From the IMG/VR virus record IMGVR_UViG_2654587792_000025: a DNA stretch of 14,932 nt; one strand, 5' to 3'. Positions 2,122 to 9,217 of this stretch are shown piece after piece. The notes beneath the pieces are model-generated. The model was not told the origin of the DNA. It did not search any database and saw only the letters and a program-made list of their open reading frames with translations. Positions within the stretch are counted from its first letter, which is position 1; every line of letters begins with the position of its first letter. Both the position numbers and the translations under genes were made by a program. Source of the stretch: a virus (lineage: Duplodnaviria; Heunggongvirae; Uroviricota; Caudoviricetes).

Positions 2122-2143
2122 GATAAGTAAGTAAATACTTATC
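2122..2143. promoter_or_regulatory. AT-rich palindrome gataagta-agtaaa-tacttatc; contains GATAAGTAAGTAA, the reverse complement of the 9087-9099 motif
   Basis: It lies just 3' of the 96-aa minus-strand gene and, on the minus strand, is followed by uuuuaug. It could act as a weak terminator or as an operator. Confidence 0.4.
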
Positions 2144-2152
2144 ACTATGTTT

Positions 2153-2443
2153 TTATTCGGTTGTAACTTTTTTGATCAAGGCCACTCTACGATCAGGTGT
2201 TCTTGTGATGGTGGCAGTGAATCGTTTCGCTTGGATAGTAATGGTTTCGTTCTCCTTAAGTTGCCCGTAGCGAGTTTCCACCAGGGTACCAAGACGCCAC
2301 AGACCATCATCGATACGTTTATGACTAGCAAATTTAATAAGCAACAGTTTTACGACTAACTGACCTACGTAAAAGGCGAATGCGACTCCGGCCGCTAAGA
2401 AATAGGTGGCCAACCACCAGTCCCAAGAAGTTAAATTGCTCAT
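2153..2443 (-). CDS. Small membrane protein (one hydrophobic helix near the N-terminus), function unknown
   Basis: 96-aa ORF with hydrophobic segment WWLATYFLAAGVAFAFYVGQLVV. Its ATG overlaps the stop of the upstream small ORF (ATGA), and it is co-oriented with the ligase operon. Confidence 0.55.
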   Translation of the reverse strand: MSNLTSWDWWLATYFLAAGVAFAFYVGQLVVKLLLIKFASHKRIDDGLWRLGTLVETRYGQLKENETITIQAKRFTATITRTPDRRVALIKKVTTE

Positions 2444-2592
2444 TTTCTAACCTTTGTTTCATGAACTACCCGATACACACGCTTTCCGATGCACAGTGTT
2501 TTGGTTTTAAGTTCCTGCTTAATTAAATCACGACAGATGCCGAAGCCGATAAGGAAGCCACCCATAAAAGCTAATGAGATGTATGGAATCAT
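2440..2592 (-). CDS. 50-aa small membrane protein (MIPYISLAFMGGFLIGFGICRDL...), not in the supplied ORF track
   Basis: Translated by hand from the reverse complement. A good Shine-Dalgarno (aggag) sits 7 nt upstream of the ATG; the start overlaps the stop of the 71-aa gene (ATGA) and the stop overlaps the start of the 96-aa gene (ATGA). Confidence 0.45.
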   Translation of the reverse strand: MIPYISLAFMGGFLIGFGICRDLIKQELKTKTLCIGKRVYRVVHETKVRK

Positions 2593-2804
2593 TTTAACAC
2601 TCCTGATTCTACTAATTGCTGTAGCAATACTTTCCCTTTATCAGTTAACTGGTAGTTGGCCGAACACTTCGTTTCAGAAACGTTTGCAACCAACCCTAAA
2701 CGCTCTAACTTAGCTCGCGTTTTAGGCTTCCAGTACTCAGGGAACTCCGGCCACTTACTGATTTCATGAAGCGTTTCCTTCTCCCGTTTACTTAATACGA
2801 TCAT
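2589..2804 (-). CDS. 71-aa hydrophilic protein, function unknown
   Basis: ORF co-oriented with the operon; its start overlaps the stop of the upstream 59-aa ORF and its stop overlaps the downstream 50-aa ORF start. Confidence 0.5.
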   Translation of the reverse strand: MIVLSKREKETLHEISKWPEFPEYWKPKTRAKLERLGLVANVSETKCSANYQLTDKGKVLLQQLVESGVLK

Positions 2805-2967
2805 CCTTAATCTCCTTCAGGGTGTTGGTTATTTCTACAATGCGATAAATACGACCGCGTCTTTCTATAACACCGCTTTTAATGTAGTCATTGATGCAAC
2901 TGGACATCACCACAATACCTATGAAAAAACCAACTGCTAAAAATGCAATCATCCAGCCGAGCATCAT
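2788..2967 (-). CDS. 59-aa small membrane protein (MMLGWMIAFLAVGFFIGIVVM...), not in the supplied ORF track
   Basis: Translated by hand. Its ATG overlaps the ligase TGA stop (ATGA), and it has an N-terminal hydrophobic helix. Confidence 0.4.
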   Translation of the reverse strand: MMLGWMIAFLAVGFFIGIVVMSSCINDYIKSGVIERRGRIYRIVEITNTLKEIKDDRIK

Positions 2968-4286
2968 TCTTTATCTCCGATTCGATCTTCTGTATCGCGT
3001 AAGCAACGCGGCCATTTCAGTCGTGGGTGGCGTAAGCTGCCGTCCGGTGTTTTCTCGTGACAATGAACCTCGACAATACGACCACGGTACTTCTCTTTGT
3101 TGTTCCAGATCTCATCCAGATATTTATGCTTAATGCCGCTCGCACGAACGATGACGCCGTTTTCAAGACGAATAACAATTTTTCCAAGTGTGTTGGCAAA
3201 ACCAGAGTCCGGGTCGCCCGGCTCAAAGTCGATAATTTCACCATCTTCGGAATCTTCGTCTTTTAACTTCCACCAGCTGCGGGTACGTTTAAACTCGTAA
3301 ACAGAGTTCGGATCTTTGCCCATCTCCCCTTCTTCGTTATCGTCCAGGCGTTTCATGAAGCGTTCGATGAAGTCTTCGTGGCTATGGATGATATAGAACG
3401 GATGCAGGTGAATGTCTTGTGTGTAGCCTTCACTGCGATCGTTTTTGAACAACGCCACCAGCATAGCCAGGCGCTCTTTCAGCTTCATACCTGTCTTTGC
3501 ATACTCTTTGGATTTAGCCTGTGCTCGCCATTCCGGTAGGAAGAAGTCGAAAACATGATAAATAGCGCCAATTGCCTGCACGTTCTTTTTGCGCAATGCA
3601 GATACGGACTGGTTAAATGAACCGGCAGTTCCTTCACCATCGAAGAAGATGTGTTTGTGGCCTGAAAGTTTGCCTAATTCGAGCATGGCTGGCTTTAGGT
3701 GATCGAGAGACGTGATTGGATTACCAGTACGAGAAAGGAAGTTAACCTCTTCCTCGTCAACAATAACCTCGCAAATTACTCGCAAACCATCGAGCTTAAG
3801 ACTGCCAATCATCGGCCATTTTGCTTTAGGATTTGGCTTGAAGGGGTATTTGTCGCCTTTTTCTTTATACGGTGACGCCAGCTGCACCTCGAATTTCGGA
3901 ATGGGATTTTCAAAAACCTTGTTGCATAGGCTAATCCCAACACCTGCTTTCGGGTCTTTTAAGAGGAAACGACGGAACACGTCCTGCCCATCGGCGCACA
4001 TTGACGCCACGATAGACTCAACAGCTGCTATTGCTGCGTTCCCCGTTAGCTCGCGAGAGGCCAGCTTATTCAGTACATCAATGGCTTTTTCGTCACTTGG
4101 GATGGACTCACTAAGCGGCTCTGCCACTTTGTATTTCTTTACCCCAAAACGGATGAAAGGGTTGAGCATCAATGAAACCATGCTTTGCTCGAAGTCATCC
4201 ATGTTGGCCAATGCCTCTTTTTTTGCATTGGTTCCCATAGCTTTCATTTCGTCCAGCTTATGCTTAAGTGCGATCAACTTTTTCAT
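2964..4286 (-). CDS. ATP-dependent DNA ligase
   Basis: 440-aa ORF containing the KxDGxR adenylation motif (SLKLDGLRV), as found in ATP-dependent ligases. Confidence 0.8.
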   Translation of the reverse strand: MKKLIALKHKLDEMKAMGTNAKKEALANMDDFEQSMVSLMLNPFIRFGVKKYKVAEPLSESIPSDEKAIDVLNKLASRELTGNAAIAAVESIVASMCADGQDVFRRFLLKDPKAGVGISLCNKVFENPIPKFEVQLASPYKEKGDKYPFKPNPKAKWPMIGSLKLDGLRVICEVIVDEEEVNFLSRTGNPITSLDHLKPAMLELGKLSGHKHIFFDGEGTAGSFNQSVSALRKKNVQAIGAIYHVFDFFLPEWRAQAKSKEYAKTGMKLKERLAMLVALFKNDRSEGYTQDIHLHPFYIIHSHEDFIERFMKRLDDNEEGEMGKDPNSVYEFKRTRSWWKLKDEDSEDGEIIDFEPGDPDSGFANTLGKIVIRLENGVIVRASGIKHKYLDEIWNNKEKYRGRIVEVHCHEKTPDGSLRHPRLKWPRCLRDTEDRIGDKE

Positions 4287-8282: not shown

Positions 8283-8325
8283 GTGCTTTCCTTTGTTTTT
8301 TAAACAAATTGTTTTCTAGTATTAG

Positions 8326-9066
8326 TTAATTAGATAGGGGATCAATAAACCGCCGTGCTTCTTCCAGTTCTTCTGGAAAGTGGGCGGAAATAAGGCGCTC
8401 TGGAACGATTTCCATTAGCCAGATAGCGGAGAAAATTGCGCGTATGCGCTTGCTGCGAGGGATGGTGCGCAAACGCTCCAGAATCCACTCAAAATAGCTT
8501 TCCTGAATCGGGTTGAACTGCATGTCTCCCATATGCTTAAAGCTAACCAGAGAGTCATCCAGACGGGTTGTTGCGCGTCTGGCTAATTTCTCTTCAAATA
8601 TCTCAATCAGTTCTGGCTGCCATAAATGCTGTGGGCGCGGCAGCTTGTCCCACAGCCGTCGTGCAGCTGCGGAAAGAACGGTGGAGATAAAGTAGTCGTA
8701 TGAGCAGCAATAGCGGTCAGCAAACTGGCGTGCTTTCCATAGAGACGTTTTATTGGCAGTCGACAACTCCTGATAAGGCAGGCGTTTTAACCCGGTGGTG
8801 AACGGAGCTGTTTCAAAGTGTTCGCGACCGTGCGTCAGCATGATATTTGAGTACTGACGTTTGTATGCCTCCGTAAACAGACAGGTGGCCATAAGAGGAT
8901 GCATGTCGCGGTAATCAAACCACTTCGTCTCGAAGAGTTCAGCCTCATCTTTACAGCGCGACAAACCAATGTTTTCAGCGACCCACTTGTCCATAACAGC
9001 GGTATTCCACTCTGTCATGAAGTCGTACTGGTCGTTGTCGATGGTATCGAAAAAGATTTGGCTCAT
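8326..9066 (-). CDS. Hypothetical protein immediately upstream of the helicase (possible helicase-loading or accessory replication protein)
   Basis: The ORF track starts at a GTG (9075), but an ATG at 9066 has a good Shine-Dalgarno (aggtga, 5-nt spacer), so 9066 is preferred. No motif recognised; the loader idea is positional only. Confidence 0.5.
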   Translation of the reverse strand: MSQIFFDTIDNDQYDFMTEWNTAVMDKWVAENIGLSRCKDEAELFETKWFDYRDMHPLMATCLFTEAYKRQYSNIMLTHGREHFETAPFTTGLKRLPYQELSTANKTSLWKARQFADRYCCSYDYFISTVLSAAARRLWDKLPRPQHLWQPELIEIFEEKLARRATTRLDDSLVSFKHMGDMQFNPIQESYFEWILERLRTIPRSKRIRAIFSAIWLMEIVPERLISAHFPEELEEARRFIDPLSN

Positions 9067-9086
9067 GTGGCTCACCTGGTAGGTAG

Positions 9087-9099
9087 TTACTTACTTATC
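9087..9099 (-). promoter_or_regulatory. Recurrent motif GATAAGTAAGTAA (coding-strand orientation) just upstream of the 249-aa gene start
   Basis: Plus strand reads ttacttacttatc, the exact reverse complement of 2122-2134. Confidence 0.4.
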
Positions 9100-9200
9100 A
9101 CAATGAGCGGATGATAGCGACTGGTGGCAGTTTTTGGAAGTGAAAACGGAAGGGAGTTGTTCTGGTGATGTCTTTTAAAAGACCTGCTTCCGTATATATT

Positions 9201-9217
9201 TAATAAGTTACTTATTA
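9201..9217. promoter_or_regulatory. Perfect palindrome taataagt-t-acttatta in the AT-rich divergent intergenic region
   Basis: Read from the sequence; the central spacer is too short for an RNA hairpin, so a dimeric protein-binding site is more likely. Confidence 0.4.

Follow-up and report, generated by a model that had tools for sequence, protein, structure and literature searches.

Dispersed palindromic sites as probable repressor operators in SSU5-type phage-plasmids

The DNA analyzed here (the window, 14,932 nt) represents an SSU5-type phage-plasmid, with 97% identity to the Escherichia phages CMS-2020a and Cyrano and 81% identity to Salmonella phage SSU5. Two palindromes in intergenic regions, i.e., site 1 (gataagta-agtaaa-tacttatc, 2122-2143) and site 2 (gataagta-accatc-tacttatt, 5644-5665), belong to one family with the 12-mers at 4777-4788, 9088-9099 and 14549-14560, as judged from their sequences. 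The members of this family are probably dispersed operators of a phage repressor. A third palindrome, site 3 (taataagt-t-acttatta, 9201-9217), forms the centre of a 53-bp palindrome that is an element distinct from the operator family.

All three palindromes were found exactly where a preliminary description of this DNA had placed them, and all are far above chance expectation. The pattern TAAGTA-N0-8-TACTTA matched three times in the window as compared to 0.01 expected matches, GATARGTA occurred in nine copies against 0.65 expected (a number reached in 0 of 200 shuffles), and the 12-mer GATARGTAAGTA was present in four exact copies. The consensus of the family is a two-fold-symmetric 18-bp sequence, TAAGTAAG-NN-CTTACTTA; when mismatches to TAAGTAAGNNCTTACTTA were counted over 16 positions, site 1 (best 18-mer TAAGTAAGTAAATACTTA, 2124-2141) showed two, while site 2 (5646-5663) and the 18-mer at 9080-9097 showed three each. 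The window thus contains three sites with up to 3 mismatches, as compared to 0.05 expected from shuffles. The direct 12-mer motif TACTTA(C/T)CTATC fits the same single 18-bp consensus, which shows a 4-bp TA phasing. As the palindromes and this motif share a recognition sequence, one regulator probably reads both, as had been suggested in the preliminary description. Enterobacterial copies of the 18-bp site frequently depart from the consensus in one half or show a 4-bp shift; this degeneracy and the variable position of the sites relative to -10-like hexamers are a counterpoint to be noted.

Overrepresentation of sites with up to 3 mismatches was also observed across whole genomes, with 15 sites in Cyrano (0.35 expected from shuffles), 21 in SSU5 (0.2 expected) and 40 in the rhizobial plasmid pLM21S1 (0.05 expected). 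TAAGTAA and ATAAGTA are the commonest intergenic 7-mers in Cyrano, where they occur at 19 and 35 times their coding frequency, respectively. TARGTA reaches a density of 4.5 per kb in intergenic as compared to 0.38 per kb in coding DNA, and the 4-bp TA phasing 3' of TARGTA was seen in intergenic copies only. Fourteen of the 15 Cyrano sites are intergenic (intergenic DNA represents 13% of the genome), and 13 of these 14 precede a plus-strand (lytic-direction) gene by 2-134 nt; the remaining one, the ortholog of site 1, is on the same strand as the tRNA cluster and 750 nt upstream of it. In Cyrano, the one-sided 12-mer extension is oriented with transcription in 11 cases and against it in six. 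As stop codons occur in every frame of the motif, it is partly forced into intergenic DNA, and this location, taken alone, does not prove a transcriptional role.

The sites hold orthologous positions in different genera. Among 18 orthologous site pairs of Cyrano and SSU5, the motif was 86.7% identical as compared to 73.2% for the flanks, and site 1, site 2 and the site at 9080-9099 are retained in E. coli, Salmonella and Klebsiella elements. The same palindrome recurs in rhizobial and methylobacterial phage-plasmids with a GC content of approx. 60%. Among the 40 pLM21S1 sites, positions 1-7 and 12-18 are nearly invariant, no compensated changes were found in the seven outer stem pairs, and the pair 8-11 is Watson-Crick in 19 of the 40 sites. 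The conserved feature of the family is therefore sequence rather than pairing.

Across SSU5-family phage-plasmids, the 18-bp sites are located on or beside the predicted core promoters of most lytic-direction operons (all promoters named here are consensus-level predictions). Site 1 lies past the last ORF of the ligase operon, ahead of a minus-strand conserved non-coding region and the tRNA cluster; six genomes from E. coli, Salmonella and Klebsiella share its core TAAGTA-AA-YACTTA but diverge in the flanks, and the extension changes side. The 6 nt that separate the arms of site 1 constitute, on the minus strand, a predicted -35 element (TTTACT, 2130-2135), located 17 nt upstream of a predicted -10 element identified in the six-genome alignment (TAAGAT, 2107-2112, minus strand; TATGAT in Klebsiella), which faces a fully conserved block at 2073-2102; the same geometry is found in the relatives. 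Site 2 precedes the minus-strand 260-aa gene (4821-5603). Its arms persist in Cyrano, CMS-2020a and SSU5, with changes in the spacer (ACCATC, ATCATC and, in SSU5, TGTATC, each given in the plus orientation of the window); in the ortholog of Klebsiella pJN2-26, the two hexamers are 2 rather than 6 nt apart. The TGT of a predicted extended -10 element (TGTGAGAAT, 5631-5639, minus strand; TGTAAGAAT in Cyrano and SSU5, TGTAATAAT in pJN2-26) lies downstream of the left hexamer at a constant distance of 18 nt, so that site 2 would span approx. -20 to -41 of this promoter. The site at 9080-9099, conserved in six genomes and carrying the 12-mer GATAAGTAAGTA on the minus strand (9088-9099), precedes the start of the 249-aa gene, the first of the helicase-primase block, by 13-33 nt. 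A -10-type box, GCTATCAT (9111-9118, minus strand; TATGAT in SSU5 and Klebsiella), is found 11 nt upstream of this site and resembles the box GCGCTATAA, which precedes 15 of the 40 pLM21S1 sites by a few nt; these 15 sites are followed by a ribosome-binding site and ATG, while others among the pLM21S1 sites occupy the 17-nt spacer of TTGnnn / TAcaaT promoters. Two weaker members, with four mismatches each, carry the 12-mer GATAGGTAAGTA on the minus strand. One (4765-4788, 12-mer at 4777-4788) is in the 55 nt that separate the 260-aa gene from the 160-aa gene and ends 11 nt before the start codon; the other (14541-14560, 12-mer at 14549-14560; Cyrano ortholog at 26656) is upstream of the holin-endolysin-spanin cassette. 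No evident promoter was found at some sites in 20-55-nt gaps between co-transcribed genes, including 4777-4788 and the terL/portal junction of Cyrano. Overall, the centres of enterobacterial sites fall at approx. -25 to -35 or 3' of the start; within the window, site 1 is on a -35 element, site 2 upstream of an extended -10 element and the 9080-9099 site downstream of a -10-type box. Such variation in position within the polymerase footprint fits a repressor rather than an activator or a promoter element.

The preliminary description had proposed that a repressor be sought elsewhere in the element, and a specific candidate was found. The most likely binder would be the XRE-type helix-turn-helix (HTH) protein family of Cyrano CYRAN_45, a gene of which is found in CMS-2020a, the nearest relative, at a distance of approx. 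3 kb from the window-equivalent region, on its left. CYRAN_45 matches PHROG 8 "transcriptional regulator" (1e-11), shows a weak match to HTH_19 and is homologous to an HTH regulator of pLM21S1 (30% identity, E = 3e-13). Both genes are followed downstream by cobT-cobS-dnaE, and the candidate gene is syntenic from E. coli to Rhizobium. In pLM21S1 it is flanked by three palindromes; the promoter of the enterobacterial gene (TTTACA-N16-TAATAT-cg-GTAAGcaCTTAC) contains the motif core, with only the inner core GTAAG-NN-CTTAC present in Cyrano. Homologs (E <= 0.01 among 50,697 phage records) were found almost only in the SSU5-like phage-plasmid family, the one outside homolog being marginal (28% identity, E = 6e-4, on a 7.5-kb fecal contig). 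A CYRAN_45-type gene was not found in SSU5, even though the sites are retained there. Palindrome type and HTH sequence co-vary: pLM21S1, RHph_X66, Cyrano and pJN2-26 combine a G[YF][KS]NxN recognition helix with TAAGTAAG-type sites, while RHEph10 and RHph_N1_10 combine a GWTQSN helix with the palindrome TCAGTCAA-NN-TTGACTGA at equivalent intergenic positions and have 0-1 sites of the TAAGTAAG type. As this co-variation is essentially one switch between two rhizobial clades, it may represent a lineage coincidence.

Other roles for the family were weighed against the operator reading. The preliminary description regarded sites 1 and 2 as weak terminators between gene blocks, and the family could more generally act in RNA as AU-rich transcribed hairpins, either as such weak intrinsic terminators or as stem-loops, 5'-terminal or intercistronic, that determine how stable an mRNA is or how it is processed or translated. 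On the coding strand, site 1 indeed forms a hairpin of -8.3 kcal/mol (z = -4.2) ahead of CUUUUAU, many family members are located at or directly after stop codons, and the 15 pLM21S1 promoters with a downstream site (class I) would place the palindrome at the mRNA 5' end, which makes a role in RNA conceivable. We nevertheless consider a role of this kind quite unlikely. The site 2 hairpin (coding strand, -4.4 kcal/mol, z = -0.97) is no better than shuffles, the 2-nt loop of the canonical site is too small, so that the stem must open, and the site 1 palindrome retains its core in SSU5 and Klebsiella but is no longer followed by a U-run. Site 2 of SSU5 lies between divergent genes, family members overlap -35 elements, occupy promoter spacers or separate a -10 box from the ribosome-binding site, and sites located in spacers (class II), like site 1 centred on its predicted -35 element, would not be transcribed from that promoter. 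Specific bases are kept without compensatory changes, ordinary GC-rich terminators are present elsewhere in the element, and a switch of the palindrome across whole genomes together with a changed HTH in RHEph10-type phages is hard to explain by hairpins. Core-promoter overlap, non-compensatory variation and the poor site 2 hairpin together make terminators unlikely.

Positive control also appears unlikely; here, the motif would be bound by an activator of the phage or would belong to a phage-specific promoter (for a modified polymerase or a phage sigma factor), and operons would be turned on in this way during lytic growth. In favour of this reading, almost all lytic operons have the motif upstream, the window contains few sigma-70-like -35/-10 pairs (two as compared to 25.4 +/- 5.6 in shuffles), the rhizobial relatives encode their own sigma factor beside dnaE, and the AAGT/ACTT half-site recalls the -22 box of P1 Lpa promoters (AAGTNACTT). 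However, the position of the motif relative to -10-like hexamers is not fixed (-35 overlap, spacer, downstream of -10), which is atypical for activator sites and promoter elements, the conserved GCGCTATAA box is a better candidate for a phage sigma promoter and is separate from the palindrome, and searches of Cyrano and SSU5 found neither a sigma factor nor an Lpa homolog. The retention of sites in SSU5 without the candidate binder fits the loss of a repressor in a lytically grown phage rather than that of an essential activator. Partition or silencing of the ParB/KorB type, as known from KorB, which acts at 12 OB sites on RK2, and SopB, which acts at dispersed centromeres of N15, would have the palindromes load one of the two ParB-like proteins of the element and thereby organize or silence the plasmid. 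Palindromic sites are indeed scattered around the replicon, the conservation of two ParB_N-domain proteins extends from Cyrano to pLM21S1, and the first ParB_N gene has a palindrome 18 nt upstream. However, the parB-like genes look like ordinary targets, with one upstream site as in 20 other operons, and they are present in SSU5 as well as in RHEph10-type and pLM21S1-type elements, although the latter two differ in palindrome type; moreover, the parA operon of the window is preceded by a different palindrome, AAACAACTTGTTT. We regard this role as very improbable.

Site 3, which the preliminary description grouped with sites 1 and 2, is of another kind: its AAGT/ACTT halves are 1 nt apart, and it reaches the consensus only at four mismatches, in two off-centre registers. 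It had also been described as unable to fold, yet the 17-mer allows a 7-bp stem with a 3-nt loop (-3.3 kcal/mol, z = -1.3). Its placement in an AT-rich control region was confirmed, while the divergent gene arrangement proved to be specific to this window. Site 3 is at the apex of an imperfect 53-bp palindrome (9183-9235; arms CCTGCTTCCGTATATA and TATATACAGAAACAGG), and a fold of -19.4 kcal/mol (z = -6.7) was obtained for the surrounding 67 nt. Three copies are found per genome (at 31158, 78083 and the record ends in Cyrano; at 33457, 78303 and the record ends in SSU5), and Klebsiella also carries the palindrome; the arms are conserved and the centre, i.e., site 3, is the least conserved part. 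Tentatively, the 53-bp palindrome may act at operon boundaries as an insulator or intrinsic terminator, perhaps together with a promoter of the TATAAATA type, rather than serve as a dimer-binding site. This would agree with a foldable lower stem conserved in 10 copies (alignment consensus -17.5 kcal/mol), with T-runs that follow copies B and C along transcription in E. coli, Salmonella and Klebsiella, and with the homology of the window to Cyrano and CMS-2020a, which stops at the right arm, marking a mosaic breakpoint. It would also agree with the retention on a single strand of TATAAATA (9216-9223, on the minus, gene-direction strand, just upstream of the site 3 centre), which is found in the same arm and strand in eight of 10 aligned copies, the exceptions being GATAAATA in pJN2-26 and TATATAAT in Cyrano copy B. 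On the other hand, copy A, upstream of terS, is without a T-run, the covariation term is about zero (-0.02), arm sequence is kept across paralogs beyond the needs of pairing, which a protein site fits too, and an analogous long palindrome upstream of terS in pLM21S1 has an operator-type centre. Site 3 resembles the late promoters controlled by Lpa in phage P1, as it contains AAGTTACTT, identical to the -22 box of LPs and LPdar, and one copy of the 53-bp palindrome precedes terS as LPpac precedes pacA. Unlike in P1, no TANNNT hexamer is present 4 nt downstream of the site 3 nonamer, and the nonamer is not conserved in paralogous or Klebsiella copies.

The closest parallel to the operator reading is the C1 repressor of P1, also a plasmid prophage of approx. 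100 kb, in which one repressor sequence is scattered genome-wide at many promoters (the repressor of the present family being predicted). According to the P1 record, C1 operators are found at ref, mat, ssb, c4, kilA/repL and lpa, and in both elements the dispersed sites include repressor-linked control genes. C1 operators are asymmetric 17-mers of the ATTGCTCTAATAAATTT type, in contrast to the two-fold-symmetric 18-mer found here, for which the candidate binder is a small XRE-type protein; in addition, late genes of P1 are reached indirectly via Lpa, whereas here sites also precede structural and lysis genes. Stoperators of Cluster A mycobacteriophages, bound by the L5 gp71 repressor, are asymmetric, orientation-dependent 13-14-mers present in tens of copies in intergenic gaps genome-wide, within operons and at stop codons, with the site set and the repressor changing together between heteroimmune lineages. 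The present sites are likewise found in tens of copies in short gaps, and the site set and candidate repressor switch together; unlike stoperators, they are palindromic, with the 12-mer extension in both orientations, and the hosts and phage type are unrelated. The OB site of RK2, a 13-bp palindrome at a dozen places from which KorB exerts global repression at promoter-proximal and distal positions, is similarly dispersed over a plasmid, but KorB is a ParB-family protein and nothing here ties ParB-like proteins to the motif.

If the sites are operators, a dimeric phage-encoded HTH repressor would occupy them during plasmid maintenance and obstruct RNA polymerase, either where transcription starts or further upstream, in the spacer or at the -35 element; within operons, it may act as a roadblock. 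The replication, nucleotide-metabolism, structural and lysis genes of SSU5-type phage-plasmids would thereby be silenced jointly.

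The three palindromes reported in the preliminary description, i.e., site 1 (2122-2143), site 2 (5644-5665) and site 3 (9201-9217), were found exactly at these positions and are well beyond chance; TAAGTA-N0-8-TACTTA occurs three times in the window against 0.01 expected, and GATARGTA nine times against 0.65 expected. The 12-mer GATARGTAAGTA is present in the window in four exact copies (2122 on the plus strand; 4777, 9088 and 14549 on the minus strand). In the intergenic DNA of the complete genome of Escherichia phage Cyrano, TAAGTAA and ATAAGTA are the top 7-mers (19-fold and 35-fold over coding DNA, respectively). 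The density of TARGTA is 12 times higher in intergenic than in coding DNA, and TA recurs at +8/9, +12/13 and +16/17 after TARGTA (i.e., with a 4-bp phasing) in intergenic copies only.

A scan of viral contigs found the motif also in contigs of about 60% G+C, which are related to the roughly 115-kb phage-plasmids of Rhizobium, Sinorhizobium and Methylobacterium; the rhizobial and methylobacterial form is a clean 18-bp palindrome, TAAGTAAG-NN-CTTACTTA. Sites with no more than 3 mismatches to this consensus (counted over 16 positions) were far more numerous than in shuffled sequences in the rhizobial phage-plasmid pLM21S1 (40 vs. 0.05), Salmonella phage SSU5 (21 vs. 0.2), Cyrano (15 vs. 0.35) and the window (3 vs. 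0.05). The window sites at this threshold are site 1 (2 mismatches), site 2 (3 mismatches) and 9080-9097 (3 mismatches), and two weaker members with 4 mismatches each are found at 4765-4782 and 14541-14558. As the same consensus fits sites 1 and 2 as well as the direct motif represented by the 12-mer, they are one thing, the 12-mer being a palindrome of which one half is well kept and extended. The initial suggestion that one regulator may recognise both the palindromes and the direct motif is thus supported and extended, in that both form one family.

Sequence comparison identified the 14.9-kb window as a segment of an SSU5-type phage-plasmid; identity is 97% with the Escherichia phages CMS-2020a and Cyrano, falling to 81% with SSU5 and to about 78% with relatives from Klebsiella. 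As the window is reversed relative to Cyrano, almost all of its genes are on the minus strand. Holin, endolysin and spanin genes are followed by parA with its 119-aa partner gene, by a block encoding a 249-aa protein, DnaB helicase and primase, by the gene for a 260-aa protein, and by a block of a 160-aa protein, DNA ligase and small ORFs (for which neither Pfam nor PHROGs gave a function); a conserved 780-nt non-coding stretch and three tRNAs come last. Two mosaic segments (about 9236-10470 and 1-741) are not found in Cyrano, the latter being occupied by an unrelated ORF. From the right arm of a 53-bp palindrome (9183-9235) onward, a 357-aa gene (PHROG 22329, unknown function) takes the place of a DUF2971 gene; homology to Cyrano and CMS-2020a stops at this right arm, and Klebsiella phage vB_KpnS_p4727 aligns across the junction, to window position 9400.

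The placement of the motif was strongly biased, as 14 of the 15 Cyrano sites are intergenic (intergenic DNA represents 13% of the genome), and 13 of these 14 are located 2-134 nt upstream of the start of a gene in the lytic direction. The remaining one, the ortholog of site 1, precedes the tRNA cluster by 750 nt. Every module is represented among the genes downstream of the Cyrano sites (replication, recombination and nucleotide metabolism, tail and tail fibre, parB-like); the site upstream of the holin gene is weaker (4 mismatches). Among 18 orthologous pairs from Cyrano and SSU5, identity was 86.7% inside the motif as compared to 73.2% in the flanks. The core of site 1, TAAGTA-AA-YACTTA, is kept in six genomes, with the one-sided extension on the other side in Klebsiella. 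At site 2, the arms are kept and the spacer is variable; the gap between the hexamers is 6 nt in E. coli as compared to 2 nt in the Klebsiella relative pJN2-26, where the distance of 18 nt between the left hexamer and a conserved extended -10 of the TGTAAGAAT type is retained.

Many sites are located at or near predicted promoters. In pLM21S1, 15 sites are located a few nucleotides after a conserved GCGCTATAA -10-type box and before the ribosome-binding site and start codon; other sites, in pLM21S1 and related contigs, take up the 17-nt spacer that separates TTGnnn from TAcaaT hexamers. Within the window, the centre of site 1 coincides with a predicted minus-strand -35 hexamer (TTTACT, 2130-2135); 17 nt from this hexamer is a conserved -10 (TAAGAT; TATGAT in Klebsiella), which points into a fully conserved non-coding block. 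Site 2 spans about -20 to -41 of a predicted extended -10 promoter, and the site at 9080-9099 is 11 nt downstream of GCTATCAT. Family sites overlap predicted -35 elements, spacers or start regions, and a search around the Cyrano and SSU5 sites for a -10 at a fixed distance found no single distance. Such a variable position within the polymerase footprint is as expected of a repressor operator, whereas an activator site or promoter element would not be expected to vary in this way. Some sites (e.g., 4777-4788) are in short intra-operon gaps where no promoter is visible; by analogy with the stoperators of mycobacteriophages, a natural guess is that these may act as roadblocks. Sigma-70 consensus-like -35/-10 pairs are strongly depleted in the window as a whole (2 vs. 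25.4 ± 5.6 in dinucleotide shuffles).

The non-coding stretch next to site 1 (1380-2120) has further features. Six genomes from E. coli, Salmonella and Klebsiella share, without a single difference, a 30-nt block, GTTCAAACAGTCGCGTCTCAACGAAAACAA (2073-2102), which on the minus strand comes just after the predicted site-1 promoter. A 16-nt inverted repeat is present at 1641-1656 and 1747-1762; this region could represent a small RNA or an origin. The only Rfam matches in the window were tRNAs, noise and a sub-threshold match to the sRNA STnc100 (970-1154, minus strand; 44.8 bits vs. a gathering score of 47), with none at the sites themselves. The STnc100 match is located between tRNA-Ser and tRNA-Thr, overlapping the 5' end of tRNA-Ser (922-1008), and a related stretch adjoins the tRNA genes of phages P1 and P7.

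Sites 1 and 2 had initially been proposed to fold into AU-rich hairpins that act as weak terminators. This reading was not supported, as the folds are weak and neither the U-run nor the pairing is kept. The coding-strand fold of site 1 reaches -8.3 kcal/mol, with 2 of 8 pairs being G-C and a four-U tail, and that of site 2 only -4.4 kcal/mol (z -0.97), as compared to -17 kcal/mol for a GC-rich terminator-like hairpin of the window (6912-6936). The latter is on the plus strand, between the helicase and primase genes and antisense to both, and is followed by a T-run; a terminator scan of the window flagged none of the three sites. CUUUUAU follows site 1 in the E. coli members only, and in SSU5 and Klebsiella the run is gone with the palindrome kept; in SSU5, site 2 is located between divergent genes. 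Over the 40 pLM21S1 sites, hardly any variation was seen at positions 1-7 and 12-18, no compensated changes were found in the outer pairs 1-7, and the inner pair 8-11 is Watson-Crick in 19 sites. Conservation thus concerns the specific bases and not their pairing.

Site 3 had been described as sharing inverted half-sites with sites 1 and 2. The palindrome is real, with halves 1 nt apart; its membership in the family did not hold, as it forms the centre of the separate 53-bp palindrome (9183-9235). Cyrano and SSU5 each have three copies of this longer element, one before the replication block, one before terS (spanning both ends of the linear record) and one after the dam gene; it is also found in Klebsiella. 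Its arms, CCTGCTTCYGTATATA and TATATACRGAAGCAGG, are conserved, and its centre differs among copies. Both the start and the end of the linear GenBank records of SSU5 (sequences L008/L006) and Cyrano (sequences L004/L002) fall within copy A, which precedes terS by about 140 nt, and the palindrome may therefore mark a physical genome end (cos/pac) or an assembly break.

Three readings of the 53-bp palindrome may be weighed. It could be a terminator or insulator; the stretch around it folds at -19.4 kcal/mol and T-runs follow copies B and C, with none after copy A and no covariation among the copies. It could also be the site of a second regulator, or a promoter combined with a variant operator. 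In 8 of 10 copies, the gene-direction strand has retained TATAAATA. The centre of an analogous long palindrome, located before terS in pLM21S1, is of the operator type. With regard to promoters, the -22 box of P1 late promoters, AAGTNACTT (taken from the annotated P1 late promoters), is matched exactly by AAGTTACTT at 9205-9213. No TANNNT -10 hexamer is present 4 nt downstream of this box (TTTATA and AATATA are found there on the plus and minus strand, respectively), and a tblastn search with P1 Lpa against Cyrano, SSU5 and the window detected no homolog (best E-value 0.61). A P1-type late promoter was thus rejected as an explanation for the whole motif family, the nonamer being found at site 3 only. 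A second dispersed intergenic palindrome, AAACAA-N-TTGTTT, occurs at 8302-8314 and 11538-11550 in the window and at 82, 29259, 32080, 58595, 80549, 81278, 93114, 93165 and 96286 in Cyrano, with copies directly upstream of, among others, the helicase gene, parA and terS; another regulator, or the DNA-binding partner of the par system, may bind it.

A regulator encoded elsewhere in the element, as the preliminary description had proposed to look for, was identified as a candidate by comparing all ORFs of pLM21S1 and Cyrano. The one small DNA-binding protein common to both is the XRE-type helix-turn-helix (HTH) protein CYRAN_45 (128 aa, minus strand, adjoining an integrase), whose partner in pLM21S1 is an HTH regulator (30% identity, E 3e-13); blastp and pairwise comparison detected this homology, which tblastn between the clades missed. 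Both proteins match PHROG 8 ("transcriptional regulator"), and both genes are located just upstream of the cobT-cobS-dnaE block. The pLM21S1 HTH gene is flanked by three palindromes, and in five enterobacterial members the promoter of the HTH gene itself has the sequence TTTACA-N16-TAATAT-cg-GTAAGcaCTTAC, in which the motif core directly follows the predicted -10; in CMS-2020a the gene (16152-16535) is about 3 kb left of the region equivalent to the window (19521-33432). Among 50,697 phage records, homologs of the two proteins were almost confined to SSU5-like Escherichia and Klebsiella phages and RHEph10-like Rhizobium phages, the lone exception being a marginal match in a 7.5-kb fecal contig. 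A search of PDB sequences with CYRAN_45 gave no match. On this circumstantial evidence, the CYRAN_45 family is a candidate for the cognate repressor of the motif. SSU5, which has been used as a lytic phage, does not have this HTH gene and has kept its 21 sites, which would fit a derivative that lost the repressor.

The candidate repressor and the site set also change together. The HTH protein of the rhizobial phage RHEph10 shows 43% identity to its pLM21S1 counterpart, and the phage has no TAAGTAAG palindromes; it carries another 18-bp palindrome, TCAGTCAA-NN-TTGACTGA, at equivalent intergenic positions (14 sites in 50 kb), namely before the helicase, minor tail protein L and tape measure genes and after the HTH gene. 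RHph_N1_10, with the RHEph10 type of HTH protein, has 7 TCAGTCAA-type sites in 24 kb, and RHph_X66, with the pLM21S1 type, has 8 TAAGTAAG sites and no TCAGTCAA-type sites. The predicted recognition helix starts with G[YF][KS]NxN where sites are of the TAAGTAAG type and with GWTQSN where they are of the TCAGTCAA type, the former being common to the Cyrano and pLM21S1 proteins despite only 24-30% overall identity. In terms of site sets and predicted helices, this co-change, effectively one evolutionary switch, is the pattern of heteroimmune repressor/operator pairs.

Other potential regulators were also considered. The RHH protein and sigma factor of pLM21S1 have no homolog in Cyrano or SSU5. 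In the rhizobial relatives, a sigma factor gene of their own is located between cobS and dnaE (6449-7090 of pLM21S1 sequence L133; 39826-40461 of RHEph10 sequence L137), and a promoter-like motif, CTCCAA-N12-(GCGC)TATAA, precedes at least 13 early or middle rhizobial genes, with no counterpart found in Cyrano or SSU5. Of the host transcription factors considered (Fur, the NarL heptamers, TyrR, MqsA and the P22 c2 operator), none, to our knowledge, fits the spacing or orientation of the motif. Cyrano has a perfect LexA-type box, TACTGTATGTGTATACAGTA, at about 89,260-89,300 (about 39260-39300 of sequence L003), upstream of a gene for a 129-aa S24-peptidase (UmuD-like). It also encodes an FljA-family protein (CYRAN_114, 173 aa, 780-1301 of sequence L004, minus strand; "repressor of phase-1 flagellin", PF03614, E 1e-80, with a weak Hfq-like match), the SSU5 counterpart being SSU5_121. 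The idea that this protein might bind the 4-nt repeat as RNA was set aside, given that FljA proteins of 173 aa repress flagellin (PMC2652032); the gene is probably an accessory one directed at the host, silencing fliC in lysogens.

Compared to known systems, the motif family resembles the operators of P1 C1 and the stoperators of phage L5 in that one recognition sequence is present in many copies, far above chance, and in that the sites are intergenic and near predicted promoters of lytic genes. As in heteroimmune sets of this kind, site set and candidate repressor change together (effectively one switch). Unlike the L5-type stoperators, which are asymmetric and in one orientation, the consensus here is two-fold symmetric and the extended 12-mer occurs in both orientations. 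By analogy, the family would thus represent an operator network akin in kind to those of P1 (C1) and the Cluster A mycobacteriophages, differing by its symmetric site and an unrelated small HTH protein.

A joint reading of these data, which we put forward tentatively and consider rather doubtful as a whole, is that a single ancient immunity system is common to the SSU5-family phage-plasmids across the range from Enterobacterales to Rhizobiales, in which a small XRE-type repressor would act on 15-40 symmetric 18-bp sites at promoters and inside operons, combining classical operators with an elongation roadblock. The TAAGTAAG and TCAGTCAA heteroimmune classes would have arisen as the repressor helix and all of the sites changed in concert, and the 4-bp TA phasing would allow half-sites to slide by 4 bp (e.g., site 2, from a gap of 6 nt to one of 2 nt). 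If true, such sliding would imply an unusual, register-tolerant recognition.

SSU5-type phage-plasmids are described in one report as common in E. coli, Salmonella and Klebsiella and as able to carry resistance genes (PMC9600943). The searchable literature (queries on motif strings, SSU5/pHCM2 regulation and pLM21S1) gave no mention of the motif, a repressor or an operator network, and nothing on how SSU5-type elements silence about 100 kb of lytic genes. Even if the repressor assignment were wrong, no conserved non-coding signal of the family would be stronger than this motif, and an explanation for it would still be needed; the sites also provide a quick sequence marker of operon starts in poorly annotated SSU5-family genomes. 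Overall, our analyses yield a cis-element with all of its sites listed, a named candidate repressor gene and a second specificity class in rhizobial phages, which together make lysis/lysogeny control and immunity groups in these phage-plasmids directly testable.
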